DNA of 64,000 nt from Eledone cirrhosa (Eukaryota). The notes below the pieces were generated by a model that ran no database searches, was not told the origin of the DNA, and saw only the letters and a program-made list of their open reading frames with translations. Shown here one piece after another: positions 13,542-62,118 of the stretch. Made by a program: the position numbers and the translations under genes. Location of the stretch: contig OZ024742.1 of NCBI GenBank assembly GCA_964016885.1, positions 268,770,001 through 268,834,000 of the forward strand. Reading direction: 5' to 3'. The first letter of the stretch is position 1. Every line of letters starts with the position of its first letter.

Positions 13542-16500
13542 ATTCGCCAATCCTCGATAAGAGTGTTTAAATATCGAACATAAACAGTTCGAATAACGGT
13601 GAAATGGAGACTAGAACGTCATGTGACAGACTCTCACCCAACAGGTGCCCCCTGGCTCAGCAGCAGGAACCTGACTGTCAACCAAATACTGCTGATGTTG
13701 GAGGAAGAAGAAGAAGGAAAGGGGCCAGAACCAACTGGACGAAAGAATTGAATAGAACTGTTATGCAATGCTACCTGAAAAGTAACCCCAAGGAGAGGGG
13801 CTACAGGAGACGGATGCATAACATCTGGAACGAGATTGGTTTATTTAAATTAGATGAACAAAAATTGGCCGGGCAGGCTCGGGTAATAAGAACTAATGGG
13901 TGGATAAGCGAGCTGGAACTGGAGGAACTGAGCAGAGAGAATGGCTTGGAGATGGCGGGTGTAGTATGCCAGACAAGCGAGCCAGTGGGAAATGAAGGTG
14001 GAGAGGTCATGAGAACGGAGGAACCACCCGAAGCAGACAATGATCTGAATACTGAGATAAATAATACCTGGAACAGAGATACGGCCACTGAGGAGATGAA
14101 TGCTGACGGACTAGGACAAGATTCGGTTGACATCCTAAATTTAGTGGTAGATGAATTGAACAATGATAGTAGGAGACCTATGAACCTAAGATTTGTAGAC
14201 AGGAAAAAGTTAAAAGAAACAACAGCTAAGGTAAACAAAGTCATCCCATACCTTGAGGCGAGGAACCTTCACCAGTGCAACAATATCCTCAAAGCAACAG
14301 CAAATACGGTGAGGAAACTACTTGGTATAAAAGCGAGAGGAAACAACAGACAAGAAAGAGCAGAGCCGTGGTGGAAGAAGCGACTGAGTGGGCAAATCGG
14401 GGAAATGAGAAATGACATAGGAAAGCTTGAGTCACTAATGAATGGGACACTAAAAAACATAGGCACTAAAAATAGACTGGAAATAAAATACAAAACTAGG
14501 AGTAAAAAGCTAAATATTATCATAGAGGAATTGAAGCAACGCATTGTAGCAAAGAGTGCAAAAATCAGACGATACGAGAACAGAGTCAGTCAGTATAAAC
14601 AGAACCGCATGTTCGACAACAACCAGAAGATGCTGTTTGGACAGCTTGAGGGGAAAGAAAGAGGCAACGACTTGATCCCTGGGGCGGAACAAACTAAAAC
14701 ATTCTGGAGAGGAATATGGGAGCAGGATGTTAGACACAATGCCCAGGCAGGGTGGATTGAGACAGTACAGAGGGAGATCGGTGAGCAGGCACAGCAACAA
14801 ACTGATTTGAGTATCACAGTTGAAACTCTTAAGGGGCAGGCCAAAAAACTAACCAACTGGAAATCACCAGGCCCAGATGGTGTGCAGGGGTATTGGATTA
14901 AACATTTAACATCCCTCCACCCGAAGCTGACGGCCATGTTCAATGACTGCTTGGTGTCGGGTGAGGTGCCAGAGTGGTTGACAAAAGGTACCACAGTTCT
15001 GATAATGAAAGACCGAATCAAGGGTAATGATGTTACCAACTATAGACCTATCACATGTCTGTCCGTAATGTAGAAACTGTTGACGAGCATTGTGTCTGAG
15101 GAAATCTACCATCACCTCCACACAAACAACTTGTTACCGGACGAACAGAAAGGATGCCGAAAGAAGTCACGTGGTACAAAGGACCAGTTACTTATTGATA
15201 AGATGGTAATGGGGAATTGCAGGAGGAGACACACTGATCTTGCCATGGGATGGATAGACTACAGAAAGGCATTTGACATGGTGCCTCATTCCTGGATCAC
15301 CAAAAGCCTGGAGATCTTCAGGATGGCAGATAACATCAGACAGTTGCTAGGCAGGAGTATGGGGTCCTGGGAGACAGAGTTGACATCAACTGGAGTATCC
15401 TTGGGAAGCGTGAAGATCAAGAGAGGTATCTTCCAGGGAGATAGCCTGTCCCCTCTGTTGTTTGTCCTTGCCCTGATGCCCTTGACCATTATGCTGCGAA
15501 AAGTGAGAGCAGGATACAAGTTGGGAAGGGGAGAGCTTACCATCAATCACCTCCTCTTCATGGACGATCTTAAGCTCTTCGGGAAAAGTGAGAAGGAGTT
15601 GGATGTGCTTGTTGACACTGTCCGTATTTTCAGCAGTGATATATGTATGCAGTTTGGTATTGGTAAATGTGGAGTCATTCTGAATAAGAGGGGTAGGTTG
15701 AGCAGAAGTAACGGGATCCATATACCAACAGGTGAGATGATAAAGGAAATTGACTCTGAGGAAGGATACAAGTATTTGGGCGTTCTGGAGGCTGATGGCA
15801 TAAAGAACAAAAAAATGAAGGAATTGTTAAGAACTGAATACATTCGGAGAGTAAGGAGCGTATTGAAGTCACATCTGAACAGCAGAAATGCCATAAGCGC
15901 AGTAAATTCCCGAGCTGTGTCTATTATTAGGTACAGTGCGGGAATTCTGAGATGGAATGTTGCTGAACAAAAAGAAATGGATAGGAAGACTAGGAAGCTA
16001 TTGACTATCTACAACATGTTCCACAAGAGGAGTGATGTCGATAGACTCTACCTAAGGAGATCTGAGGGTGGAAGAGGTCTTATCAGCATAGAGGACTGTG
16101 TTCAGATGGAGAAAAACAACCTATACAAATACGTGACCTATAGTAAGGAGCCAATGCTCAGAACTGTACTGAAGGAGGGGACAGTAGGCCAGGGGATGTC
16201 CAAGGAGGAAATAACATCAAGGAGGAAGAGCAGCCTTAAGGGAAAATCCCTTCATAGTACCTTCTTTGAGAAAACTGAATTTAGAGATCCACAGATATGG
16301 AACTGGTTGAGAAGAGGAGACCTCAAAAAGGCTACAGAAGGAATGCTAATGGCTGCGCAGGAGCAGGCCCTCAAAACGAAGTGGTTGAAGCACCATATCT
16401 ACAAGGAGGAGGCTAGCCCACTGTGCAGGATCTGTGGAGAGAGAGAGGAGACTGTGGCTCACATTGTGTCCGAGTGTAAACACCTAGCCCAGACCCACTA

Positions 16501-17070
16501 TAAGGGCTGGAGACACGATGTGATGGGCAGGGTGATCCACTGGCACCTGTGCAAAGTAAACAATTTACCACATTCTGAGAAATGGTATGAGCATAGGCCA
16601 GAGGCGGTGATGGAGAAAATCAGGTGAAGGTGCTGTGGGATTTTAGGATACAGACGGACAAAAAACTGGAACACAATAGACCTGACCTGGTGGTTGTGGA
16701 CAAAGAAAAAAGATCGTGCCTGATTGTGGATGTGGCCTGCCCGTTCGACACGAGAGTGCAAGAGAAGGAGAGGGAGAAAATTAACCGATACCAGGACCTA
16801 AAGTGGGAGGTGAAAAGGATTTGGAACTGCCATGAAGTCAAAGTGATCCCGATTGTCATAGGCGCACTGGGGACTATCTCCAAAAGTTTCCAGGGATGGT
16901 TAAAGAAAATCGGCCCCTTCACGCTTTTTGGAACGCTTCAAAAGGCATGCTTGCTTGGAACAGCAAGAACCCTCCGATACGTCCTGAATATCTGAGGCTG
17001 CAGGTAGTGGCTTGATATTCAATCCAACGGACTTTCCAGTTAACCAACATCAATGACTGAGATTCAAGGA
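13536..17070 (+). mobile_element. Full-length R4/Dong-clade (RLE-type) non-LTR retrotransposon inserted in (TAA)n
   Basis: Single long ORF, (TAA)n on both flanks, short UTRs; (TAA)n targeting is established for Dong. Confidence 0.92.
13604..16995 (+). pseudogene. RT + CCHC + restriction-like endonuclease polyprotein with two lesions (TAG at 15071-15073, frameshift near 16620)
   Basis: [71 protein letters not shown]...IVDVACP. Confidence 0.93.
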
Positions 17071-18015: not shown

Positions 18016-21000
18016 TTCATTCTTAAGCCACGCAATGCTCACATTAAGGAACCACTCATGATAATAACAATTTAAAAAAAAACAACAAAAAGAAAACCCC
18101 GTGACCAAGAAATACCGGGATGGCGGCCGGCGGGGAATAGCCGTGTCTCTAGGGGAGAACGACCCCTCTAGTCTTGGTTGACACTCGTTCTAGAAGTGGT
18201 AACACGAAATGATTACCCCTTGGCGGATATGGATAAGACGCGACAAAATAAAGTAGATGTCTAATGATAAAATCTCATACCGGATCGGCCATCACCCGGG
18301 TAAAAAAGGGCAGCGTCCCTCAGAGAGGAACCAGACTGGGGTCGAGAAATCAGCTAATGGTTCAAACCTTCCCATGACTTCGGAGCTGGAGACCTCCCAT
18401 AAGCGGAATACTCCTACTGTTGGCCCTCCATGCTCACCACCAAGAAATCCAAAGAAAAAGACAGACAAATAGTCAAGGGAAGATAATAAAGAAGTCCTTG
18501 AGGCTTTCTACACTGCCATGTACTACCCATCAAATACATCGAATACAGAACAGACATATATCAACTGGAAAAAGAAACATCCCGAAAACAGAGACTGTAT
18601 TGACAGTAACAAACTAGCCAATATACGAAGAAATATTGTAAGAAAAAAGTTACTAACTGATATAGAAATTGATCAGATCAAGCTATTAGCACAAAGTCAG
18701 CGAAGGGAAAATGAAACATGTGTCAGTGAAAACGTGGTAAATTGTAACACTTCGAATCCCAGGGTTGGGGCGGAATCACTGGCAACAGAACAAATTAAAG
18801 AAAGGATCGAAAAAGTGGAGGGAGTGCATGCTCAAGATGAAACTCCAAATGAAAATAATGAGATCGAAAATGATAAAGAAATGAATGAGAATGAACTTGC
18901 CAACTTGAAGGATGAAATTATGATCGAATGGATGAAAATGAAAGAATCTGACATGGGGCAACGAGACACCCTCCCTAAGATCCAGAACTCCAAACAGAAC
19001 CAAAAGATAATACACAAGACTAACATAATTCTCAAAAACATTATCATCACAAACAAACTAAACATTACTGATTTAAATCATCTCTATTATGCATCGGCTA
19101 AAGTCACCACTCACTTATGTGGAGTGAAGATGAAAATACAAAGGAATTCCCACAAGAAATCTACTTGGCAAGAGAACATCAATCGCCAAATAAACCTTCT
19201 CCGATCTGACATAGAAATTTTAACAAACTATAAAGTAGGTGAACATGTTAAACAAACTAAACTTAGAAAATTGAAAAAAAAGTACAGTATAAAATCAGCA
19301 TGTGACATAGACATGCTGATAGAAATAATCAAGTAAAAAGTGTCGGCCAAAGCTGCTCGTATAAGGCGCTTTGAAAACCGATCTAGATTCTATAAGGACA
19401 ATAATATGTTAAAAAACAACCAAAGAAACTTCTACATAAAAATTGGTAAGTCAACAATAACTGCTAAATCAATACCACCCAAGGAGAGTGCAAGAATTCT
19501 GGAAAAGATCTGGGCCGAGGAAAAAGTTCATAACATACATGCCCCATGGATAGATAGACAAATGAAAGATACAGCTCACCTTGAGATTAACAAAATGATA
19601 CTGGAAGATTGTCATAATAGACACAAAAATCTATCGATTGCTTGCTTAGATTATAAAAAAGCATTCGATAGTTTGCCACACAGTTGGATTGAAAAATGTT
19701 TAGAGATTTTTAAAATATCCCCCGTTGTCAGGAGGTTTTTGTCATTCAGTATGAAGACATGGAAAACGACACTCCTTTTGAATAGTGAAACAAAATCACT
19801 GGAAGCTGGAGAAGTTAATATTAATTGTGGAATGTTTCAGGGTGACTCTTTATCACCGCTTTTATTCTGCATCGCACTTATACCATAAAGTAAAATGCTC
19901 AATGAAACAAAACATGGATATAAAGTCTATGACAAAACCATTAATAACCTGTTCTACATGGATGACCTGAAACTATTTGCAAAAAATGATGAACAATTGC
20001 AAGTGCTATTATCCACTGTGGAGCAGTTCAGTGATGTCATTAAAATGGAGTTTGGACTAGATAAATGCGCCAAAGCAACGTTCACCAGAGGAAAGCTGCT
20101 GAAGAGTTCAGACATTAATCTTGATCGGGAGAACGTGATAAGAGAACTTGATCAAGAAAAAACTTACAAATATCTAGGTGTTTGTGAAGGAGACGGAATC
20201 AAGCACTCGACGATGAGGGAAAGGATAAGGAAGGAATGTTACCGCAGAGTAAGAGCAATCTTAAGAACGGAATTGAATGCAAGGAATAGGATCGATGCCA
20301 TAAACACGCTTGCCATACCAGTAGTAACCTACAGTTACAATGTCATCAACTGGTCAAGCACAGAGATCCGTAGGCTCGATACAAAAATTCGAAAATTCTT
20401 AACCATGCACAGAATGCATCACCCTAAGGCAGATATAGATATAATATATCTCCCTAGGAAAGAAGGAGGACGTGGGTTAATACAGTTAGACATTGCGTTG
20501 AAAACTGCAACAATTGGATTATCTACATATCTAATGGAATCACAAGATTGGATGATCAAACTCGTTTTGAAACACGAAAGTATCAAAAGATCATATTCCA
20601 TTACAAAAGATGCACAAAGATACAGTAATGGACTACAAATTTCAGAAGTCCCATTTACTGCTGAAATGGAAAACACAGAAAAAGCAAAGCAGGTAAAAGT
20701 AACTGCAAAGAAAAAACTGCTACAGAAACTGGCTAAGAAATGGCAAGAAAAGCCTCTGTATGGAAAATACCCAGAGCGAGCTAACAATCCTGATGTTGAC
20801 AAAACTTTAACCCATCAGTGGTTGGCATCCTCTGGACTGAAATTGGAGACGGAAGGACTGGTTATATTAGCACAAGTTCAGTGTCTGCCAACAAAAAATT
20901 GTAGGCGCTCTGGGAATGATAGCTAAGGGGTCTAATGATTACATATCGCAAATCCCAGGAAACCCGCGTATAGGAGAAATACAAAAGATAGTACTAATGG

Positions 21001-48339: not shown

Positions 48340-51300
48340 TTTAGTTGTTTTTATACCTCTCCTTTGTTCTGTCCTACGCCATCAGAAGAAGGCTTTTTGG
48401 CATCGCACGTGCTACTCAAACGCCACCAGTAAAGTGAAAATACAACGTGCAAGAGACCGTAACGAACGGTCTTTGTCAACTGGATCACATATCCGCAGAA
48501 AGCGAGGACGCACTTCAAGCTTTGACAGGAGTGAGCCATCAACCTCTGCCACAATCTTAGGGCCGTTTACACAGTCAGCAACAAACCCACTGGAATATGA
48601 TTTGTGTTTTTCTTTTCAAACGTTTGGTGATCAACAGTTGTTTGCAGTAAGAACAGCCAATGCGGGCTAAGCTGTAAAAAAACTGTGAAAATCTCTCCTA
48701 ATCCAGAACTAAAAACAAGAATGGAATCTTGCATCTCCGAAGGGGATGCCCACGTTGTTGATATCAAATATCATAAACAGTGTTGGACAAGAAATGTGTT
48801 CCATGTTCTGAGAGATAACGCTATCGCAAACAAAGAGAGGGTGTCAACAGCAAACAGCTAGTTTCATTGAATTAGTGCACATTATCGACGTGCAAACAAC
48901 AGATGGCGCATATCTTTCCATGGCAGACATCGAGAATACCTATTTGAACATGTTAGGTGGAGCAGAGGCTTTGCCAAATCACAGACCTGTCTATACCAGT
49001 CAATGGCTGAAAGACAAAATATTAACAGAATTACCATGTGTAAGGTCTGTTTGCAAAGCAATGGGCGAAGGTCAGCTGTATTGTATTACCCTGAAGCCTG
49101 GGAGGTTAACGTGGTTCACTCTTCCATCACTTCTGATGACACGGACGACATGAAAAATATCTATAGGTCAGCACAGCTTGTTCGCCACACCATTGAACAT
49201 TTTACCAAAAGACATCCGCCACAAAGTTCAATTCCAATTTCCAGCAAATAGAAGATGTGCCAGTGGAACTCTATACACTTATTCGCTGGATCATGGCACG
49301 GCCTGCAAATGAACTGGAGACTGAAGTTCGAACACATGTTGTGGACAGAGCTGCCCTTACAATGAGTCAAAATCTGATGTTTGGATTCAAATCTAAGAGA
49401 TAAGTCACATACAAGCCCAAAACTGAGCATTCTGGCTTTCCATCGCAGCATGTAAGAGAAAATCCATCAAAAGACAAGAAATAAGATGCTCGTTAATTTC
49501 CTCAACGCCCAAGATTACTGTTTCATACAGCTAATGATAGAAACAGCCGTTGCCAATGTGCTGTAGTTGAGAACACCAAACAGTTCCAAGGGTGGTATAT
49601 GCCACCATTCCTCAAGAGAGGCACATTTGTCTTCTTCGCAGTAGACAATGCGGATTTCACTGAGCACACTCCAGATGGTAAAGGTATCACCCATAGAACT
49701 ATCACTGCTGTATACCAGAAATCTGATGCCCCTGGAGAACCAATTGCATCACCCCTAAATATCACTAAAGCACAGAGTCTCTCTGTGACCCCATATCATA
49801 CAGCTATAGTTCCTTGTGAGAAGACAAAGCGGAAGACACCATCTGAAAAGAGGATGATTCAGTGTGCCATTGACAAAGTAGGTGTGGATAGAACCTACCA
49901 GCTCATACATCTGGGATGGGTCGTTGCCTACGCTGTTTCCTGAATGAACGATGGAGACTCGAGTCGAATTCCAGGCTGGGCAGGCTATAACTCACTTTTG
50001 TCGACAAGCCTACCCTTAACTGAGGTTGGAGCTCTACCTTCGCTCCCAGAAGTCGCGCATGAATGGCCAACATTGCTAACCGTTATGATGCAAGAAAATA
50101 CATTAAAAGAGCTGGCAGTTGATAACAAGTACCTCACTGTCATTTCATTCGACATGGCACTCTAAGAGAAAGCAGTACAGTTGGTTGATGCTTGGCCGGA
50201 TTTGATGGGCAAAGTTCTGCTAAGACTTGGTGAGTTTCATGTTGTCATGGCTGCGTTCAGAGCTCTCGGCTCTTCAATTGAAAACTCTGGAATAGACGAC
50301 GCCTGGAAGCCGATCTGTAAAGTTCTGCCACAACCAGACAAATTCTCAAGTGCATACACTACAAGCGTTCGCTACGTGCACACATTTACTCCCACATGGC
50401 ACTTTATGAACTGGCATTGGAGCAGTTCCTAGACGACAATGCTTATCTGAAAAATCTGTGTCTAGAAGCAATGATTCAAGTAGAAGAGGCGGTTCAGAAC
50501 AAAGGCACCAAGGCTGAGTCTGTGACGCATGCAAATGCTCATCTGCAGCAAGTCTTAGCAGAGTATGATGTGATCAAGAAACTGCAAGACTGGGAATCAG
50601 AGAAGGCTAAGAATGCCATGTTCAGATCATTGATGAACTATATGCGTCGGGTAGAGATAGTTCTGTACTTTGTAGCGGCATCGCGGAATGCTGATCTGAA
50701 TCTTCATCTTCAAGCTGGAGAAGCACTGAGCAAGCTGTTCTTCTCAAATTGACAGGTTAAAGTATAAAAGACTCTGGCCACGCTACATAGCAGATATGCA
50801 CGCATTGAAGACCAACCACCCCGACACATGGAGGGAACTTAAAGAGGGCAATATATCCATCACAAAGAATGTCATCCCGTTCGTATCCATTGGAGGTGAC
50901 CATGCCTGTGAACATCTTAACAAATTCATGAAAGTTCAAGCTGGTCTCATTGGAATTTGCAATAATCCAAATGCAAGGCAACGGTTCTTCATGGCAGCTC
51001 CTGAAATGTCCTGCCATGCAAAGGAGTTTAAGGGCCAATTCGGTGTTGGTGAAAGCCATGCCCTCTTGAGCATCATGACCTATTTCCAGCTGCAATCAAG
51101 CGAGATCATGGAGAAGTAAGCAAAATCAAGAGTGCTATATTGACTCACGGCAATCCATTTACTGTTGATGGGAAAACACTCTACAACTTGATAACTCATG
51201 CATATATCCCATATAAGTATGTAACGCAGATCTTGGAGATGGATGACACTGGACAAAAGCTGTACAAGGAATATGTTGCTGAACGGATCAATGGAGGCGT

Positions 51301-53537
51301 CCGCCTTTGGGCACCAGTGAAGAGACAACACAACGAGATGTTCACATCTGGCAACAAGAGACATGCTATAAAGGTTCGTGACAAAATCATTGACATGAAG
51401 GAAACCAAATATTTGTATGGCAGACTTATGGTTCTTGCCAGGGCCGACCGAGACGTGAACCAGAAAGAAGCAATTAGCAATTACGTGTTCACCTTGACGC
51501 CAAGAGCACTCTGTGCCCCAAATGGGTCAGTGTTGCCATGCACTGACAAGTCCAAACTCATTCATCTCCTTGATCAAATAGCATCAGAGAAAACAGCACA
51601 AGGTGATTCACTGCAAGATGAAGCCACTGAAAAGGACAATCTCAATCACAACAGGAGGGTTGCGGTGGTAGATGGAATGGTGCTTATTCAGAAGCTGACT
51701 AAGAAACCAGCTACCATGTTACAGTGAGAGATCTAAGCCAAAGTTTATATGAAAGACTGATGAACCTCACGCAGAACATTGACGAAATAATTCTCGTGTT
51801 TGAAACATATAAGACCGATTCCGTGAAGAATGCAACCAGGCAGAAGAGATGCCAATGGAAGGAGCCAGGCCAGTATCAAGTCAGAGACGAAACGAGCATT
51901 AAGCACATAACCATGAGCAGATTCCTGTCACACAAAAAGACGAAGGCTGATTTGACCAAGTACTTGGTAGAAAAGACTCTGTTCTACAGCAAATATTCCC
52001 CCAAGCTTGTAATCACTTCAGCATCTGGCCAAGCCAGGGACAACACGGATTTGGAACCTTTCAGTGAAACCAACCACGAGGAAGCTGACACACTGATGAT
52101 ATTCCTTGCAGTATCTTCAACGAGGCGAAACCCAAGAGATATGGAACTAACTGTTTTCTCACCTGACACAGATGTCCTGGTTCTGGTAATTGCCAACTAT
52201 GATGTGTTACCTAGGCACACCCCCATCTCCATGGCATCAAGTGTTCTAAAGATCCAGCCATTCTGGGACGTTCTAGGTCCAGCAAAGGCGAAGGATTTAC
52301 CTCCATTCCATACCTTCTCTGACGCCGATAATACGGGAAGGTTTGCTAGAGTAGGAAAGGCCTTCCTTGAAGCTGACGAACACCATTAACGCTCTGAAAA
52401 ATCTGTCTGATCATACGAAAGTGACTGAAGAACTTCTGACCAGCTTGGAAAGTTTTGTCTGTCCTGCCTACAGTCCAAAAGGAATCCAAATCAAAAGCAT
52501 TCCAGAGTTGCGATGGTACCTGTTCTGTAAATACATGTCAGAGAGTGACAAATTACCACCTAGAGTTGGTGCCCTCAAGCAGCACGTCTTAAGGGTACAT
52601 CGGCAAGCACGAGTTTGGGGCCAGGCAAGCACTCTCCAGCAAGTTCTGTTGGATCCAATGCAGAATGGCTACTACAAGGGAGATGATGGCCAACTAAAGC
52701 CAACCACTACTGATGATCCTCCAGCACCTAAAGCCATCAGTGAGATGATGAGATGCCAGTGCAAGGGAGATTGTTCCTCACAAAGATGTTCTTGCAGGTC
52801 AAAGAATCTGCAGTGCACCGACCTTTGCCTGTGCACCACACAGTGTGAAAATGACGCGGAAAGAGTTTATGAAAACCTTGACTCAGGTAATACTGATAGT
52901 GAGAGTGATGACTGATATGATGGTTATGACTGATTCCGTTCTAAAAGTGGCAATAACAAAGTGTGCAGAAATTTGTATTCCTGCCTGTCAAAAGTCATGA
53001 CTGATTTTATCGTGAAATGGACAAAAGCAAAGTATCCACGAAATAATTGTTTTATGTATTAAAATAAAGTGTACATGAAGACACATTTATTTTTATTATG
53101 TTTGACTCGTGCTTCGATATCCTGATTATGAGTGAATCTAGAGAAGAAATATCATATTTGCATGTGGTGTTTGCAGTTTTGTCATTAAAATTGGTATTTT
53201 TATTTAAAAATTATTTCTTCATGTTAAACGTAAGTGATTGTAGTTAATTTCTCTACACTTCTGGCCCCTTAAAATGTAAGTTTAGCCACTGAAAGTAAAA
53301 GGCTACATGGCTTGGAAGTGAATATATTGGTAAATTTAGATTTCAAACGGTCGCCATTTTGAAGCCCTAAGACGGCCATGTTCAGAACCCTAAAAAAATA
53401 GCAACATTGATTTTTGGATTCAATACATCCTAACGTTTCCAAAAATGTATAATTTAGTAGATCTCAAAAATGTTTGAACGAAAATGTACGAGGAACTGGA
53501 CTATTATGCAAATATGGTGTGAATGCATGTTGGTACC

Positions 53538-53539
<2 letters not shown>
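48340..53539 (+). mobile_element. Academ (AcademX-type) DNA transposon; left end not found
   Basis: Large transposase with XPG-like and Cys-rich domains; right end reads ...GGTACCTA, i.e. a TAG terminus as described for Academ. The left boundary is approximate. Confidence 0.8.
48434..52915 (+). pseudogene. Fragmented Academ transposase (DDE + XPG/PIN-like nuclease + Cys8), about 1500 codons
   Basis: FFAVDNAD, IPGWAGYN, ISFDMAL, RLGEFH, DHACEHLN, VVDGM, NHEEADT, SPDTDVLVL, CQCKGDCSSQRCSCRSKNLQCTDLCLC; many frameshifts. Confidence 0.88.
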
Positions 53540-53571
<32 letters not shown>

Positions 53572-53798
53572 GGTACCAACATGCATTCACACTATATTTG
53601 CATAATAGTCCAGTTCCTTGTGCATTTTCGTTCAAACATTTTTGAGATCTACTAAATTATACACTTTTGGAAACGTTAGGATGTATTGAATCCAAAAATC
53701 AATGTTGCCATTTTTTTAGGGTTCTGAACATGGCCGTCTTAGGGCTTCAAAATGGCGACCGTTTGAAATCTAAATTTACCAATATATTCACTTCCAAG
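53311..53798. repeat. 488-bp palindrome centred on (TA)n, mirroring the Academ right end
   Basis: Arms 53311-53539 and 53570-53798, 229 bp each, 5 mismatches by eye. Confidence 0.95.
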
Positions 53799-54635: not shown

Positions 54636-57292
54636 TTAATAAACACCTTGATCAGTATTTATTTGTACAATTCGTATAGTATCACTATGATTTTAGATAG
54701 TTAGCGTAACGTCCTTAATATTGATGACGAATGATTCTAGATCATATATAACAACTTATTACTAATACGAGGAAGGTAATTCCAACACTCGCCCCAATAG
54801 ACTTAGTCCCACAGACCCATTCGGGCGTATATAGTTGAATAGTTGGACCCTCCCCAATGCGAGACTTGCGTACACTGCCCACTCCTCACCCTTAGTAATA
54901 CATACAGATCATACCTGGATTGAGAAAACTGTGCTTGCACATTAGGAATTTGTGAGTTCCCTTTACCGTGGGATTGTAGGTCTTCACTCCTGTTTGGAAA
55001 CTCCTCCATTTTAGTTTTGGTAATGCTACCGTCGACCTTTTCGACTTTTCATATAGTTACCGAGTTTTAATGGTCTTTAGTGTGATACACTTGACAATGT
55101 TGCAGCTCCATTAATACTTAATAACAGTATAGATTTTAGCACGAATCTGTCGAATTAGTATGAGGTCTGTTGTTGATTAAATATTATTTTTTCTATTTAT
55201 TTTGTTTACAGTCCGAATTAAAAAACCTTATAGATTACAAATTAGAGTAGTCCCCATTTATTTACCACTTTTACGTCACGTAATTATTTGACGACTAAAA
55301 ACGTCATCAACTGATATGCGTTGTTATACACTTAGCGGCGATAAACGAAGTAACATGTTATCTTGAGCCTGATTTATAAATTTAAGTGGTATGTAGGCAC
55401 TCTTTTATAATCTTTATAATCTCTGTATATATGTTTGGGTTTGATCCCACCTAGCAGGCGTACTAGGGTACCTGGTGGATTTTATGATTTGGGCACTTTG
55501 TGTTATTTTCTTTTCTGTTTTGTATAGATTGTTTACCCACGTGGTCTGATCGCTGCTACTGTTACCAGGTAATCCTTTTGACGAGCTCGTGACTGGATTG
55601 TGTGTTGAGACTTTGTTTGGATTCAATCTGGAACTGAAACTTGAACATATTATGATATACGGCCTGGGATCTTATACATAGGTTTTTTTTATGTATATAT
55701 CCAGCATGTAATTCCGGTTACTGGATGTGATGTTATGTTTGAGTGATAATTTATATCCAACTATTTTGTACTTTTGAACGATCTACATATGTTGTATTAT
55801 TTAGACTTATTAGTTAGCTACTGAATTTCAATCCTATTTCTATTTAACCCCTAGATATTCGGGACATATGTAACCGATTGGTCTAGCCTATACGGTTAAT
55901 ATACATGTGTAGTAACTCTTTGCTAGTTGGTTTTACACTAACTAAAATAAGATTGCGGGGCTTTTGCTTAAGCTCTATCTTACAATAACCCCGATTTGTT
56001 TGTTTTATATGTGGGGCCTGTCTATATACTTGTTATACTCAGCTCGATCCTGTAATAAAACTATTTTGCTTTTGTATGGCTTGAATTTATGTGAAACATA
56101 TCTATATGCTTTTGAAGCACCCATGGGCTACGTAATTCAGGTACCTACCAGTATACGATGTATATGTATACCATGGCGGCGATTTTGATTACTGAGTATC
56201 CGATTAGTGAGATATTAAGAAACATAAATCCATAAATACTGAAACATATATGTTAAACTGTCATAAAGATAGAGTAAAAGAGTGGAATAGTGAATGAGCG
56301 AAAATGAAGAAGTATGACCATTTGTTATATATCTAAGTCAGTTTTCAGTTAATAATAATAACACTCTGTGATTTATTTATTTTGCGAAGAATTCTCTCAG
56401 AACCAAATATAATTTTCTCGTTTTTGGCAGTTAATTTATGCTATGTTATGTTACCATAATTACTCTGTATCTTTGCTGGTTCGGCATTTGAATAGAAATC
56501 TCACATGGAATTACTTTAAGTAAAACACATCTGTGCTCAGCTTTTGAACATTTGAACAATATTTTCAACGCTTTCCTGGCCATTAGCCTATTTAGAAACT
56601 GGCAACCAACCTAGCCCCTTGTTATTGTAAATGTCTAACATTTGGATCACCTTGGACTCCGGGTTGTTGTAGTTTTGATCTGCTCTTGTACGCCTCGAAT
56701 CTTATGTGATGGTGTGTTAGCCCACCTTCAGATTGAAACATTTTGGTAAATATGGCACGTGCAAAATCAAAATGTATGGGGTACTCATTTGTATGAAGTC
56801 TGCTATGTCTTAGTAGCACACACCTTGACATACTTACACGTCACCATTGTACACACGAAAACCGTTCTGGGAACGGACTAGCATCCACAGACGATATAAG
56901 CCCCCCCCCCCTTCATTTCAGCATAGGCCTTCTGCTTCGCTTGAAATTCCTTAACATCGGGGCAATCAGATTATATATCTGTGCTCTGACTGTTGCAAGA
57001 TTTTCCCCTGTGTTGGTATTTACATTCTTTGCAGTATATTTCAGGCAGTCTTCAAAGCTGGTGTGTGATTTGCGCTTCAGGTATTTGCCAATATTTGGAG
57101 ATTCTATGCGTATTTTATACATATTTTCTGACATGACCACCAGGTGACAATGTTTCATGATCCTGGTCTCGATATTTACAGACAGGCCCACTGCAACTCA
57201 TTAGTATCTGGTGTGTGAAATACCCCTCCCCGCCACAGAAAAACACTATTTCACACTCTCTCTGACTCTCTCTATCTATCTATATATATATA

Positions 57293-57554
57293 TAGCGAGG
57301 GAAAAGTGGTAAGGAACCAGGTGGACCATAACGCACCAAAGTACTCAATACTTAGGGTAGTAGAGTGGGTAATAGGAGTAAGTAAGACCCCGACGGCTGA
57401 GCTCAAGCCGTTGACGGCTAATTCTGTACTGAATGAAAAATCAGTTCTGGTATTTAAATAGCCGAACTTGTCAAGGGGCAATTCCATATATGGTCAAAGA
57501 GATAATCACCAGGATTGATCATCCCACAAGGTAGTAGTAATTCAGCGATGACAA
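57293..57554 (-). repeat. 3' pseudo-LTR
   Basis: Nearly identical to 61105-61367. Confidence 0.95.
57388..57478 (-). ncRNA. Broken copy of the pLTR hammerhead (2-nt deletion in GAAA)
   Basis: + strand GCCGTTGACGG here vs GCCGTTTCGACGG in the 5' copy. Confidence 0.75.
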
Positions 57555-57805
57555 GTTGGTGGGGGAGGTAGCCAAACCTGCCAGTAGGAGAAAAGGGGAG
57601 AGGGGGAGGAGTAGACCCATTCATACGTTGGTGGTGCCAGCTACAGCTGGGTGTGAGGTCAAATAGGAAGCAGGGGAGGGGGAGGGTGAGGAGGTCAATA
57701 CGGTAAGTAGAACGATGAAGATGTAAAACTGAAAAGGTACTGAGAGAGAAAAGAAATATAAGCGGACTCTGGTTACTAAGAAATAGGCTGAAGAAATAAA
57801 TAAAT

Positions 57806-58224
57806 AAGTAAATAAGAAATACATAAATAATATTCCACATAAGTAAATAAGAAATACAAAAATAATATTCCACATAAGTAAATAAGAAATACATAAAGAA
57901 TATTCCACATAAGTAAATAAGAAATACAAAAATAATATTCCACATAAGTAAATAAGAAATACAAAAATAATATTCCACATAAGTAAATAAGAAATACATA
58001 AATAATATTCCACATAAGTAAATAAGAAATACAAAAATAATATTCCACATAAGTAAATAAGAAATACATAAAGAATATTCCACATAAGTAAATAAGAAAT
58101 ACATGAATAATATTCCACATAAGTAAATAAGAAATACGTAAATAATATTCCACATAAGTAAGTAAGAAATACATAAGTAATATTCCACATAAGTAAATAA
58201 GAAATACGTAAATAATATTCCACA
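57806..58224. repeat. 35-bp minisatellite, 12 units (AAGTAAATAAGAAATACATAAATAATATTCCACAT)
   Basis: Head-to-tail units starting every 35 bp from 57806; no spacers. Confidence 0.95.
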
Positions 58225-58796: not shown

Positions 58797-61013
58797 TTAC
58801 GTCTCCATAGGCAAGCAGAGGTTACCCATTACAAAATAGGCAAGTGGGGTGTTATAGGCTACCCCCCCCCCCGGGTCATTATGGGGTTTGAGGGCGAGGT
58901 AAGTCCTACGTAATCGGTGTTTACATGCAGTAACCAGTTCATCTTTCTTGTTAAGGAGTTGGTCCGTCGAAAACAGCATTTGTAATGTTTCCTCCGAGCA
59001 TAAATTGCACGGACGGCGTCCTCCCGTGTAGGAGTTGGCTCTGGACAGTAATTTCCAAGTGAGATCATAGTTGATGTTGTCCTTGAGGTCCCATATGTGG
59101 CCCGAAAGTGTGGTGGCGTGACGCCGGGCCGGGTTTCGGAAGGTATGTCTGTGTTGGTATAGCCGGGTCTTGAAGTCGCATGCGGTCAATCCTATATAAG
59201 CTTTGTTGGAGGTGTCCGTGCTCACGTTGCACTGGTAGATCACATTACGGTCTCTGCATCTGTTGTCGAGGGGGCAACTTGATCTATCAGGACAGTTGCA
59301 CCTCCTGGTCGGCTCTCCACTGCTATTTGGGTTGTTTCTTCCATCGGGGTTGAGTTTTTTGTTGTTGGAGGAGACGATGTTTTGTGCGAAGTTAGGTGTG
59401 GTGCTGTAAGAGAGTTTGATGGTATTTTTGTTAATTATGTTGTGGTAGCGGTGTTGTGGTGGGAAGTGTTTTTCCATGAGCCTAAAGAAAATTTTCCCGA
59501 TGGGAGTTGTCACCTCGGCGTTGTGGGGAGGATTGAACCATGTTACATTTCGTGAGCGGCGGTGTCGCCTGCTGGTTCCGCTAATGGGAGCTGGACAGTA
59601 GGATATTTCCTCCCGGAAACCGCTCCGCTTGAGGGCCTGGTTGAAGTAAGGCGCGTGTTCATCGAATATCCTCTCATTAGCTGACAAGCGGGATATACGG
59701 AGGGAGATGTTTTTGACCAGGTTGTTGGTGATGTTCCTGGGATGGTTAGATCTGCGGTGGATGTAGTGCAGGTTGTCATTGGGTTTCCTGTATGGGTAGT
59801 ACAGGTCATTGTTGAGATCGAGGGTAACGCCCAGGAAATTAACTCGGGTCAGGGACGTCTGTAGGGTTATTTTAAATCCCCAGTCGCGGAAGAAGCTGAT
59901 TAATTGTTTACGGACCCGGTCTGTACTACTGGGGTTGTACCCTTTAAGGGTAAGGAGCCCATCATCACGGTACAATCCACCACCAAAAGCCGGAAACATA
60001 TCGGTGAGTTTGGCTATCAGGAATAATCCTATAAGATCTGTGACCTCCGCCGAGTCGGTAGCGCCCATGCTGACGTCGAAGGGTGAGTCAGGAGCTCCTT
60101 TTATCCATTTGGAGTTGTCAAAGAGTAAGACTGTCTTCCTGGCGTGGAGGATGATTTTTCTTTCCTGGTCGGTGATGGGCACAAGTACTTCGGCGAAGTC
60201 CAAGGCGGCAGTGAGTAGCGGTAAGGTGATTGAAGCGTAGTAGCTCTCTATGTCGAACTGGATAAATTTAGTATCTCGTTTATCCTCCAAATTGCTGAAC
60301 CATGAGACAACTTCCTGGGTGTTAATCCATAGGCTAAGTCGGGCGTGTTGCTTGACTTTAGGTATCACGCGGTCTAGGATTTTTTTGCTGATTCTCCCTA
60401 TGTCGGACTTTGTTGGGTTTATAAGCCTGATAGATGGTTTACGGTCGAAATCAGATTTGTGGTCCTTCAGTGTAAAGTAGGGTGTCCGTGGGTCTAGGGG
60501 TTCGGTGCGGTCGGCGACCCCAAGGCTAGAGGTAATTTGTTGTCCATCTCGATTAATGTCCTCGAGGCATGAGTGGTTGGCCTTTTTATAGGTGGAGTTT
60601 AGGCTGCTCCTGATCAGTGTGTGGTATCTGTCTGGGTTGACAAAGTATAGGTTCCTAGTTTTATCCGAATGCGCCATGATGTCATTGGTGTTATCATACT
60701 CTGTTAAGTTGCTACGGAGTTTTTGTAGGAATCGGTTGTCTGGGTTTGAATTTAAGGTTCTTGACCAGTTGGAAGAGGTCATTCTCGAAGGGTGAGAGCA
60801 AAGGGTTCGGGGGGGGGGAGATTTGTAGGTAATAAATCCGAATCTCTCCTTGGTATCGAAGTCCTGATTGTCGCAGAATCTGTCGTAGAAAAAAGTTCTC
60901 CATCTAAGTCTTTTCGCAAATAGGTCGATTTTTTGCGTGAGCATCCGAAGGTAAAGTTTTTTCGGTGGGATTGGGATGTTCTTGGTAGAGAAGTCGATAA
61001 TGTGTTTTCGCAT
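58797..61013 (-). CDS. PLE reverse transcriptase / GIY-YIG endonuclease (Naiad-type); open frame, probably damaged
   Basis: First in-frame ATG at 61013 (MRKHIIDFSTKNIPIP); SDKTRNLY, TLKDHK, RLINPTKSDIG, FDIESYY, MGATDSAEV, LYRDDGL, CNCPDRSSCPLDNRC, VIYQC...YIG...FKTR..QH, CNLCSEE, LLN, CKH. Confidence 0.9.
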   Translation of the reverse strand: MRKHIIDFSTKNIPIPPKKLYLRMLTQKIDLFAKRLRWRTFFYDRFCDNQDFDTKERFGFITYKSPPPRTLCSHPSRMTSSNWSRTLNSNPDNRFLQKLRSNLTEYDNTNDIMAHSDKTRNLYFVNPDRYHTLIRSSLNSTYKKANHSCLEDINRDGQQITSSLGVADRTEPLDPRTPYFTLKDHKSDFDRKPSIRLINPTKSDIGRISKKILDRVIPKVKQHARLSLWINTQEVVSWFSNLEDKRDTKFIQFDIESYYASITLPLLTAALDFAEVLVPITDQERKIILHARKTVLLFDNSKWIKGAPDSPFDVSMGATDSAEVTDLIGLFLIAKLTDMFPAFGGGLYRDDGLLTLKGYNPSSTDRVRKQLISFFRDWGFKITLQTSLTRVNFLGVTLDLNNDLYYPYRKPNDNLHYIHRRSNHPRNITNNLVKNISLRISRLSANERIFDEHAPYFNQALKRSGFREEISYCPAPISGTSRRHRRSRNVTWFNPPHNAEVTTPIGKIFFRLMEKHFPPQHRYHNIINKNTIKLSYSTTPNFAQNIVSSNNKKLNPDGRNNPNSSGEPTRRCNCPDRSSCPLDNRCRDRNVIYQCNVSTDTSNKAYIGLTACDFKTRLYQHRHTFRNPARRHATTLSGHIWDLKDNINYDLTWKLLSRANSYTGGRRPCNLCSEETLQMLFSTDQLLNKKDELVTACKHRLRRTYLALKPHNDPGGGVAYNTPLAYFVMGNLCLPMET

Positions 61014-61104
61014 GGTGCGAGTGAAACAAAATGAGCCTGGCGGAAACGTCTGGATACGGCGTGGTAAGGTCGGAAAGTGCTCTACTACGGGGATAGGAGC
61101 TAGA

Positions 61105-61367
61105 TAGCGAGGAAAAGTGGTAAGGAACCAGGTGGACCATAACGCACCAAAGTACTCAATACTTAGGGTAGTAGAGTGGGTAATAGGAGTAAGTAAGACC
61201 CCGACGGCTGAGCTCAAGCCGTTTCGACGGCTAATTCTGTACTGAATGAAAAATCAGTTCTGGTATTTAAATAGCCGAACTTGTCAAGGGGCAATTCCAT
61301 ATATAGTCAAAGAGATAATCACCAGGATTGGTCATCCCACAAGGTAGTAGTAATTCAGTGATGACAA
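61105..61367 (-). repeat. 5' pseudo-LTR
   Basis: Direct repeat of 57293-57554. Confidence 0.95.
61199..61291 (-). ncRNA. Type I hammerhead with U3-A8 core and extended stem II
   Basis: Reverse complement reads CCCC-TTGACAA-GTTCGGCTA...TAGCCGTC-GAA-ACGGCT-TGAGCTC-AGCCGT-C-GGGG; GUC cleavage predicted between 61203 and 61202. Confidence 0.85.
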
Positions 61368-61380
61368 TATATATATATAT

Positions 61381-62069
61381 ATGAAAGACGTAAAATAAGA
61401 ACATTTTAAAAATTAAAAATTAACTTACTAAAATTTTCACTCCAACTAATTAGTTTCTGTAATGGGATAAAGATAGTTACGCAATGTAACCATCGATAAT
61501 TCATTACGTCATCAGGGAGTCTATTCTCAGCTAAGTCTCCAGGCAATGCGCGGACACTAGGGACTCATATAAAAATAATAATAATAATTCGGTGGATGGA
61601 ACAGCTAGCGGGGACTGACAAAGTTCACTGTCTCTGGTCAAATGGCAGATTCTAAAGAATCAATCACGTGACACTGAGGCTAGTCGGAAGGAGTGGGGTG
61701 GTAAAATGACAAAAGCCTACTACCACTACAATGAGTTAGTAGTGGTTTTGGCAGGTTTGCTCAACAAATAAATAATTTGGAGATAAATATAGAGAATTAG
61801 TATATTTACCAACATATGCGTACAGACGTACCCTAATGGTAGCAAATACATAAGTTATTTCATAGTACTTAGGTGGTTCAATGCAGGAGGATGCAGAACA
61901 ATTATATGAAAGACGTAAAATAAGAAAATTTAAAAAATTAAAATTTAACTTACTTACTAATAATTGTTCTGCATCCTCCTGCATTGAACCACCTAGGTAC
62001 TATGACATAACTTATGTATTTGCTAGCATTAGGGTACATCTGTACGCATATGTTGGTAAATATACTAAT

Positions 62070-62073
<4 letters not shown>
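61381..62073 (-). mobile_element. ORF-less PLE-derived cassette with direct and inverted terminal duplications
   Basis: 61381-61429 repeated at about 61906-61955; inverted arms at about 61791-61904 / 61960-62073; hammerhead at 61439-61520; microsatellite flanks. Confidence 0.7.
61439..61520 (-). ncRNA. Type I hammerhead, canonical core, long stem II, palindromic stem III
   Basis: Reverse complement reads ACTCC-CTGATGA-CGTAATG...CATTACA-GAA-ACTAATTAGT-T-GGAGT (GUU site). Confidence 0.78.

Positions 62074-62118
<45 letters not shown>

Follow-up and report, generated by a model that had tools for sequence, protein, structure and literature searches.

Our preferred reading, to which we give a probability of about two in three, is that the pseudo-LTR of a Penelope-like element carries a type I hammerhead whose stem II likely doubles as the promoter, that the main RNA would start within that stem, and that a minority of RNAs would be cut. 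The element lies in the window, that is, the whole 64,000-nucleotide stretch of Eledone cirrhosa DNA that was analysed. Sites are numbered from the predicted cut: +1 is the first base past it (window 61202, minus strand), and -1 is C17 (61203). The element and the parts of its motif are as follows.

61101 to 61367, minus strand: 5' pseudo-LTR, with (TA)n before it, recognised as a direct repeat with 57300-57554 and by its +102 end
57292 to 57554, minus strand: 3' pseudo-LTR, then (TA)n, recognised as a direct repeat; its hammerhead (57478-57388) lacks G12 and A13
58797 to 61013, minus strand: 738-aa ORF, reverse transcriptase followed by a C-terminal GIY-YIG-type endonuclease, with Hydra-clade motifs (motif reading)
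57804 to 58224, minus strand: 3' UTR tandem repeat, a 35-bp unit present 12 times
61199 to 61291, minus strand: type I hammerhead motif with U3-A8 core, 55-nt stem II and palindromic stem III (from sequence, folding and conservation)
61291-61288 (CCCC) with 61202-61199 (GGGG), minus strand: stem I (from sequence)
61281 to 61287, minus strand: core U3 U4 G5 A6 C7 A8 A9 (UUGACAA; from sequence)
61226 to 61280, minus strand: stem II domain, 55 nt, from G10.1 (61280) to C11.1 (61226), with CGGCUA/UAGCCG inside
61225-61222, minus strand: GAAA
61204 to 61222, minus strand: stem III, a near-perfect palindrome ACGGCU(U)GAGCUCAGCCGU with an invariant loop
61202 to 61203, minus strand: predicted cut site, GUC followed by G, between 61203 and 61202; a minority of genomic copies begin at exactly 61202

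Judged from its protein motifs, with reference proteins compared by eye, this is a Penelope-like element of Hydra-clade type. The ORF has YRDD at about residue 348 and AYIG at about residue 606, both read from motifs, along with RWR (a variant of RWK), DKT, a CxCX5C linker (CNCPDRSSC), a CxxC (CNLC) and a CxH (CKH), and it has no CCHH. Reverse transcriptase followed by a C-terminal GIY-YIG domain, with DKT, the CxCX5C linker, CxxC and CxH but no CCHH, is the arrangement given for the Hydra clade (PMC8557442; here and below, cited papers are represented by excerpts). The sequence-only reading had labelled the element a Naiad. That label is rejected, because the endonuclease is C-terminal to the reverse transcriptase rather than N-terminal and the motif is DKT rather than DKA; Naiads are defined by an N-terminal endonuclease and by DKA in place of DKG (PMC8557442). 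A Pfam search of the ORF gave no domain match, and a PDB sequence search likewise gave nothing useful. Insertion into (TA)n, a Hydra-clade trait, is present as well.

The element unit is 3.5-3.8 kb in a host genome of 3.0 Gb. In the window copy, two offsetting 2-nt indels (a frameshift pair) scramble about residues 69-91 of the ORF. The 5' pseudo-LTR extends 165 nt above the cut, so the window copy retains the putative promoter described below. Also in this genome is a younger sister subfamily, rich in open frames and arranged in head-to-tail arrays of about 3.53 kb. The unit length of the 3' UTR tandem repeat varies among element copies. An upstream ATG occurs in the 5' leader (window 61138-61140, minus strand) and is present in aligned copies; it opens a short frame in other copies, and by eye a 1-nt loss in the window's 5' repeat runs that frame past the main start. 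Long inverted repeats lie at 61780-62085 (133-nt arms, beside the element's 5' end) and at 53311-53798 (a palindrome with 244-nt arms and no spacer). Broken ORFs at 13604-16627, 18518-20926 and 51239-52915 we take, from their resemblance, to be two other non-LTR retrotransposon copies and a DNA-transposon-like remnant.

The hammerhead parts proposed from the letters alone are all present on the minus strand. Stem III has 6 bp if A15.1-U16.1 is counted (5-6 bp), and in the window copy's subfamily stem II opens with one G-C pair followed by a 2x1 U loop. By eye we recognised no tertiary contact between loops I and II. In some folds a distal extension of stem I is possible, 61305-61296 with 61189-61183 (GGA with UCC), closing at the +20 short end described below. 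Family-wide, U and C occur at position 3, all four bases at position 7, and A and G at position 8.

We measured conservation over 14 copy groups, obtained by pattern and protein searches, of which 13 majorities were used and one group of 2 omitted. Core and stem columns are invariant in 37 of 45 cases, versus 39 of 151 upstream columns (Fisher p 1.7e-11); in distal stem II the figure is 17 of 39. U4, G5, A6, A9, G10.1, C11.1, G12-A15.1 and U16.1 never vary across the 13 majorities, N7 shows all four bases, and H17 is fixed, as a type I hammerhead requires. Position 8 of two groups was taken from genome-wide counts, the G8 in the O3 and M1a majority rows being a sampling artefact. Among 26 copies, stems I, II and III are paired in 93.8, 97.3 and 88.5% of cases, and two-sided change in the proximal stems is almost nil; the stems are thus conserved, without proof by covariation. 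An alignment of copies, which had been proposed as a check, gives stems that are 88-97% paired with almost no two-sided change. Rfam scans returned no hammerhead match for the motif. We conclude that this is a real hammerhead motif, under selection and more than chance.

It had also been claimed that only the 5' copy is intact, the 3' copy (57388-57478) having lost 2 nt of GAAA. The loss is there, namely of G12 and A13, and the claim holds at the window locus; it fails in the window copy's subfamily. In that subfamily 38 alignments to 30 loci yielded 33 readable motifs, mostly from 3'-type ends; UUGACAA is found in all 33 and an intact GAAA in 31, the window's own 3' copy being one of the two exceptions. 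We therefore read the broken 3' copy, from this comparison of copies, as private decay with no design meaning.

Fold predictions for the window copy are less favourable to the ribozyme. The folding z-score reaches only -2.2, and the structure of lowest energy is a competitor in which the core is hidden. Stems II and III form jointly with a probability of 0.15, versus 0.38 for a hairpin with GAAA in its loop, and the stem III palindrome gives -30.7 kcal/mol as a duplex versus -7.1 as a hairpin. Because of these fold probabilities and the palindromic duplex, cleavage as a monomer, which the sequence-only reading had suggested, is doubtful. The RNAalifold consensus likewise pairs the core with the cut site and loop III, so the core is hidden, and this competing fold is conserved no less well than the hammerhead (96.8% paired). 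Within the competing fold, positions 3 and 10.2 alternate between U.G and C-G. The youngest large subfamily is the exception: it has A at 10.2, and its lowest predicted energy belongs to the hammerhead. Its ribozyme folds best, and it also occurs in head-to-tail arrays of 2-4 near-identical full-length units (G000:C1:437200456-437211648 and similar).

The U3-A8 core had been described as a known compensatory variant, and this is borne out: such a core had already been found in nature (PMC3088659) and published for Penelope-like hammerheads (PMC4209133). The earlier expectation that other copies conserve both the helices and the U3-A8 pair was half right. The helices and GAAA are kept; the 3:8 pair is not strictly kept, and it passes through U.G, U-A, C.A and then U-A again. 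Genome-wide exact counts in a fixed context are 5,282 for U3-A8, 1,729 for C3.A8, 48 for U3.G8 and 11 for C3-G8, with 0 matches for reversed-pattern controls. The oldest copy group has U3.G8 in 20 of 24 matches. A copy tree, built with positions 3 and 8 masked from 87 of 157 copies after removal of short flanks and surplus young copies, is a ladder from U.G to U-A to C.A to U-A, with support of 100/98 and 98/93 bounding the C3 stretch, and a protein tree gives the same order. The time order of the phases comes from within-group divergence, which runs from 0.075 down to 0.010 along the ladder, not strictly monotonically, on an unrooted tree; rooting with the sister family at 40% identity failed, as the outgroup branch had a length of 1.0 and joined a short fragment. 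A separate C3-G8 subfamily was considered and rejected, its 11 copies being scattered within C3.A8 groups.

Mismatches at 3:8 strongly reduce hammerhead cleavage. In the anole element, G8C and C3G each abolish cutting singly (PMC11167929). The C3.A8 subfamilies nonetheless reached 1,729 copies or more; spread therefore did not require Watson-Crick pairing at 3:8. C3 co-occurs with G at position 7 in 95 of the first 100 C3.A8 matches; since the two coincide as one event, a shifted C3-G7 pair is possible.

The ends of genomic copies point to where the RNA may begin. Reverse transcriptase would prime internally at +20 and +102 and run off the 5' end of the RNA, so that short copies would record RNA ends. 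The sites concerned are the following.

61183 to 61186, minus strand: short 3' end of insertions (+20), putative internal priming site 1 (53 of 181 copies)
61101 to 61105, minus strand: long 3' end of insertions (+102, the tail end), putative internal priming site 2 (67 of 181 copies)
61240 to 61249, minus strand: two overlapping Initiator-like motifs, TCATTC (A at 61247, -45) and TCAGTA (A at 61243, -41), at the 5'-end pile-up, junctions and depth step
61264 to 61273, minus strand: TATA-like box TATTTAAATA, overlapping the 5' strand of stem II, its first T 30 nt above the probable start

A further 27 of the 181 copies have no alignment to the window tail and by eye are mostly diverged short ends. 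Genome-wide, the tail motif occurs 30,812 times versus 7,070 for the 5' core motif, a more than four-fold difference. We scored the 5' ends of the first 100 consecutive tail-motif matches, from 21.5 Mb of one contig, by a procedure that misplaces +1/+2 ends: 62 fall at -35 to -46, none at -47 to -99 and 11 beyond -100, while 19 fall at -4 to -28 and 8 at -1 or below the cut. When short partners are added the mode is -41 (19 of 144), with a second peak at -45, duplicates being imperfectly handled and partners non-independent. A pattern search finds 2,290 junctions exactly at -41. In three runs, which we read as DNA contigs and which come from two samples of one study, possibly the assembly's own source, a contig depth of 2.5-4.2 million gives way to about 50,000 over 61240-61256, a drop of about 50-fold, and there is no step at the cut site.

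A TATA box conventionally lies about 30 nt above its start. Here, in every one of the 14 copy groups, the TATA-like decamer begins 29-31 nt above -41, the exact TATTTAAATA being confined to the four youngest. The -41 site is the A of TCAGT/TTAGT, and -45 is the A of TCATT; in Drosophila the Initiator reads TCAGTT (PMC10290830).

An untemplated G at the junction has been taken as a trace of the cap in LINE-1 and SVA (PMC4859970). By hand count, a G immediately precedes the junction in 45 of 100 cases at -41 versus 6 of 63 at +1 (Fisher p 9e-7), where the first 100 matches were used at -41, 37 extra-G artefact rows were removed at +1, and the two patterns allow different bases. Since the usual junction partner is itself 36% G, the excess at -41 is a modest one (binomial p 0.04). 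Three fold-backs carry the extra G on both arms, among 20 loci chosen for that G; a G on each arm is also found in one of six +1/+1 fold-backs.

That a box inside stem II might serve as a DNA-level promoter proves the best-supported part of the sequence-only reading, given the 5'-end pile-up, the -41 junctions, the depth step and the constant spacing of 29-31 nt. We conclude that the long stem II likely houses the element's RNA polymerase II promoter, and we infer from the genomic ends that the main capped RNA starts at 61243, less often at 61247, inside the stem II domain. The main RNA is thus likely without the 5' half of the ribozyme, the half required for cis-cleavage. Promoter and cis-cleavage are mutually exclusive on one transcript, a point that the sequence-only reading overlooked.

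A minority of copies begin at the cut itself. An exact +1 junction pattern gives 1,709 matches versus 578 for a control at G12 with upstream bases alike. Inspection of 30 of the +1 loci yielded 17 clear junctions, 2 unclear cases and 11 artefacts, and 12 control loci yielded 5 junctions, the other 7 being one fragment carried inside another repeat. With artefacts removed we estimate about 1,000 junctions at +1 versus about 250-300 for the control, or about four times as many. Examples include (TA)n joined straight to GGGG and exact fold-backs with four G per arm; the junctions are exact and mostly without an extra G. Among the 100 tail copies, an unbiased sample, only 5 lie at +2 to -1 by eye, a weak excess, identical copies having been merged by duplicate removal. 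The class that starts exactly at the cut is likely a trace of in vivo cleavage, to judge by these junctions, and pausing of reverse transcriptase at the cut site, at the foot of stem III, is a possible source of the +1 ends. As a separate observation, a pseudo-LTR fragment (GAAA to +20) has been picked up by another simple-sequence repeat and amplified with it (L257, L261, L263, L264, L266, L267, L268).

The host genome also contains a second, very abundant family with Hydra-type motifs at about 40% identity (e.g. G000:C3:268030400-268032720 and many others). It ends in a degenerate hammerhead-like motif with a C3.A8-type core, GAAG for GAAA and a long palindromic hairpin; a hammerhead descriptor search found no proper hammerhead in it, and a start-site pile-up was not seen among 29 biased copies.

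Other accounts of these patterns need to be weighed against ours. The promoter may be real and the ribozyme catalytically dead, its sequence being maintained because it serves as downstream promoter DNA and gives the RNA a structure used in packaging or priming, with the +1 ends arising as reverse transcriptase pauses at stem III. This account sits well with the amplification of C3.A8 and U3.G8 subfamilies, with the degenerate-looking motif of the second family, and with a 3' half that occupies +1 to +45 of the probable start, where promoter elements would also be conserved; moreover, ribozyme mutants of the anole element still insert in vitro (PMC11167929). We nevertheless consider it unlikely, for U4, G5, A6, A9 and G10.1 are invariant 30-40 nt above the start while N7 is free, which is exactly the hammerhead pattern, and the +1 joints are exact and mostly lack an extra G. 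The opposite account, put forward in the sequence-only reading, is that the ribozyme cleaves efficiently as a monomer and so fixes the 5' end of the RNA at 61202, about 190 nt upstream of the ATG. The distance is right, the ATG at 61013 being 189 nt below the cut; most copies, however, have their 5' end 35-46 nt above the cut. The two 3' ends are both downstream of it, so that long copies would require RNA that was uncut or re-joined, and 28 of 30 ORF-bearing copies extend upstream through a motif. We regard this account as very improbable, even granting that +1 ends exist, that stem III at 5-6 bp exceeds the 3-4 bp listed for Hydra-clade hammerheads, and that in the youngest large subfamily no fold has a lower energy than the hammerhead.

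One could also dispense with the promoter and attribute the pile-up at -35 to -46 to stalling or template switching by reverse transcriptase in the distal stem II hairpin, or to a splice acceptor. The ends are indeed scattered over 12 nt, and the region has a hairpin and two AG dinucleotides following a pyrimidine run. Yet the stronger stems II and III are crossed first with no comparable pile-up, the edge is sharp, with none of the 100 copies ending between -47 and -99, the ends include the AG and are joined to no shared upstream exon, and the extra G and the constant TATA spacing also speak against this account, to which we give very little credence.

Under the preferred reading, which is drawn from DNA copies and fold prediction, transcription would begin inside stem II at 61243 and secondarily at 61247, the RNA likely being capped, and a whole ribozyme would be found only in the 3' repeat or in read-through RNA. 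That whole ribozyme is likely slow, because a core-hiding fold competes with it and the 3:8 pair is often a wobble or mismatch. It would probably cut a minority of RNAs, giving uncapped ends at 61202, and the cutting would probably be assisted, by dimerisation through the stem III palindrome or by the element's protein. Since both 3' ends lie below the cut, long copies would need RNA that was uncut or re-joined at the 3' motif.

A more speculative extension, which we think improbable, is a ribozyme split between the two RNA ends. The capped 5' leader would supply the substrate half (the stem III palindrome and the cut site) and the 3' repeat the enzyme half, so that pairing of the RNA ends would remove the cap, leave the 3' priming sites intact and turn message into template. 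Cutting would be kept slow as 3:8 cycles through U.G, U-A and C.A (or a shifted C3-G7), with C-G never fixed. In fold models with an artificial linker, the split arrangement is 0.2-2.9 kcal/mol from the minimum and 10-13 below the self-folded 3' ribozyme.

Penelope-like hammerheads cut poorly in vitro, and in the one element examined biochemically mutants still insert and its RNA data showed no cut ends (PMC11167929). In the present family, tens of thousands of short copies offer a genome-only map of start and cut sites. On the preferred reading, promoter cargo is a suggested reason for the growth of stem II to 55 nt, most transcripts would hold half a ribozyme, and self-cutting likely affects only a minority. 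The genomic copies further supply candidate evidence that cleavage occurs in vivo, together with a natural, dated series of states at 3:8 that lends itself to direct assay. Hammerheads of this type escape searches that rely on CUGANGA or on short-stem descriptors.

Much of this has precedents. Pseudo-LTR hammerheads, U3-A8 cores, hammerhead dimers (PMC6765202) and pseudo-LTR promoters are already known, and a plant retrozyme has its start site above its ribozyme (PMC12029980). In the literature searched, mostly titles and abstract openings, we found no hammerhead stem described as holding a start site, no genomic copies said to end at the cut, and no wobble or mismatch phases recorded for 3:8.

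The closest relatives are in the Hydra clade (Craig et al. 2021, PMC8557442; Hydra-1_Obim, Penelope-2_NV), whose protein motifs match apart from RWR for RWK here, and which share (TA)n targets and a type I hammerhead near the 3' end. The Hydra-clade hammerheads in File S2 of that paper are all CUGAnGA, with stem II loops of 3-10 nt and a stem III of 3-4 bp; the present element differs in its U3-A8 core, 55-nt stem II and 5-6 bp stem III, and in its size of 3.5-3.8 kb rather than below 3 kb; canonical core and length are descriptive rather than diagnostic traits in that paper. Naiads (PMC8557442) share the (TA)n preference, pseudo-LTRs, inverted 5' copies and the tail; they have the N-terminal endonuclease and DKA, neither of which the window element has, and are without canonical hammerheads. 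Schistosoma Cercyon (Cervera and De la Pena 2014, PMC4209133) has U3-A8 pseudo-LTR hammerheads too, about 1,300 being reported, with a palindromic stem III region and low expected activity, as here. Unlike the present motif, those of Cercyon have no real stem III and have short stem II loops, and the excerpts of that paper describe neither an embedded promoter nor C.A/U.G phases.

In PAc, a Poseidon element of the green anole (Frangieh et al. 2024, PMC11167929), two internal priming sites define the tail, as they appear to do here, uncut RNA is the main template and the hammerhead is protein-assisted. PAc differs in its canonical C3-G8 pair and in an ORF that begins in stem II. According to the excerpts of that study, no PAc RNA reads end at the cut, whereas here genomic copies do, with a probable start in stem II. 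Finally, Penelope of Drosophila virilis (Schostak et al. 2008, PMC2377424) likewise has a pseudo-LTR promoter with an Initiator. That promoter is TATA-less, internal and accompanied by an intron, whereas here a TATA-like box and an Initiator would lie within the ribozyme itself.
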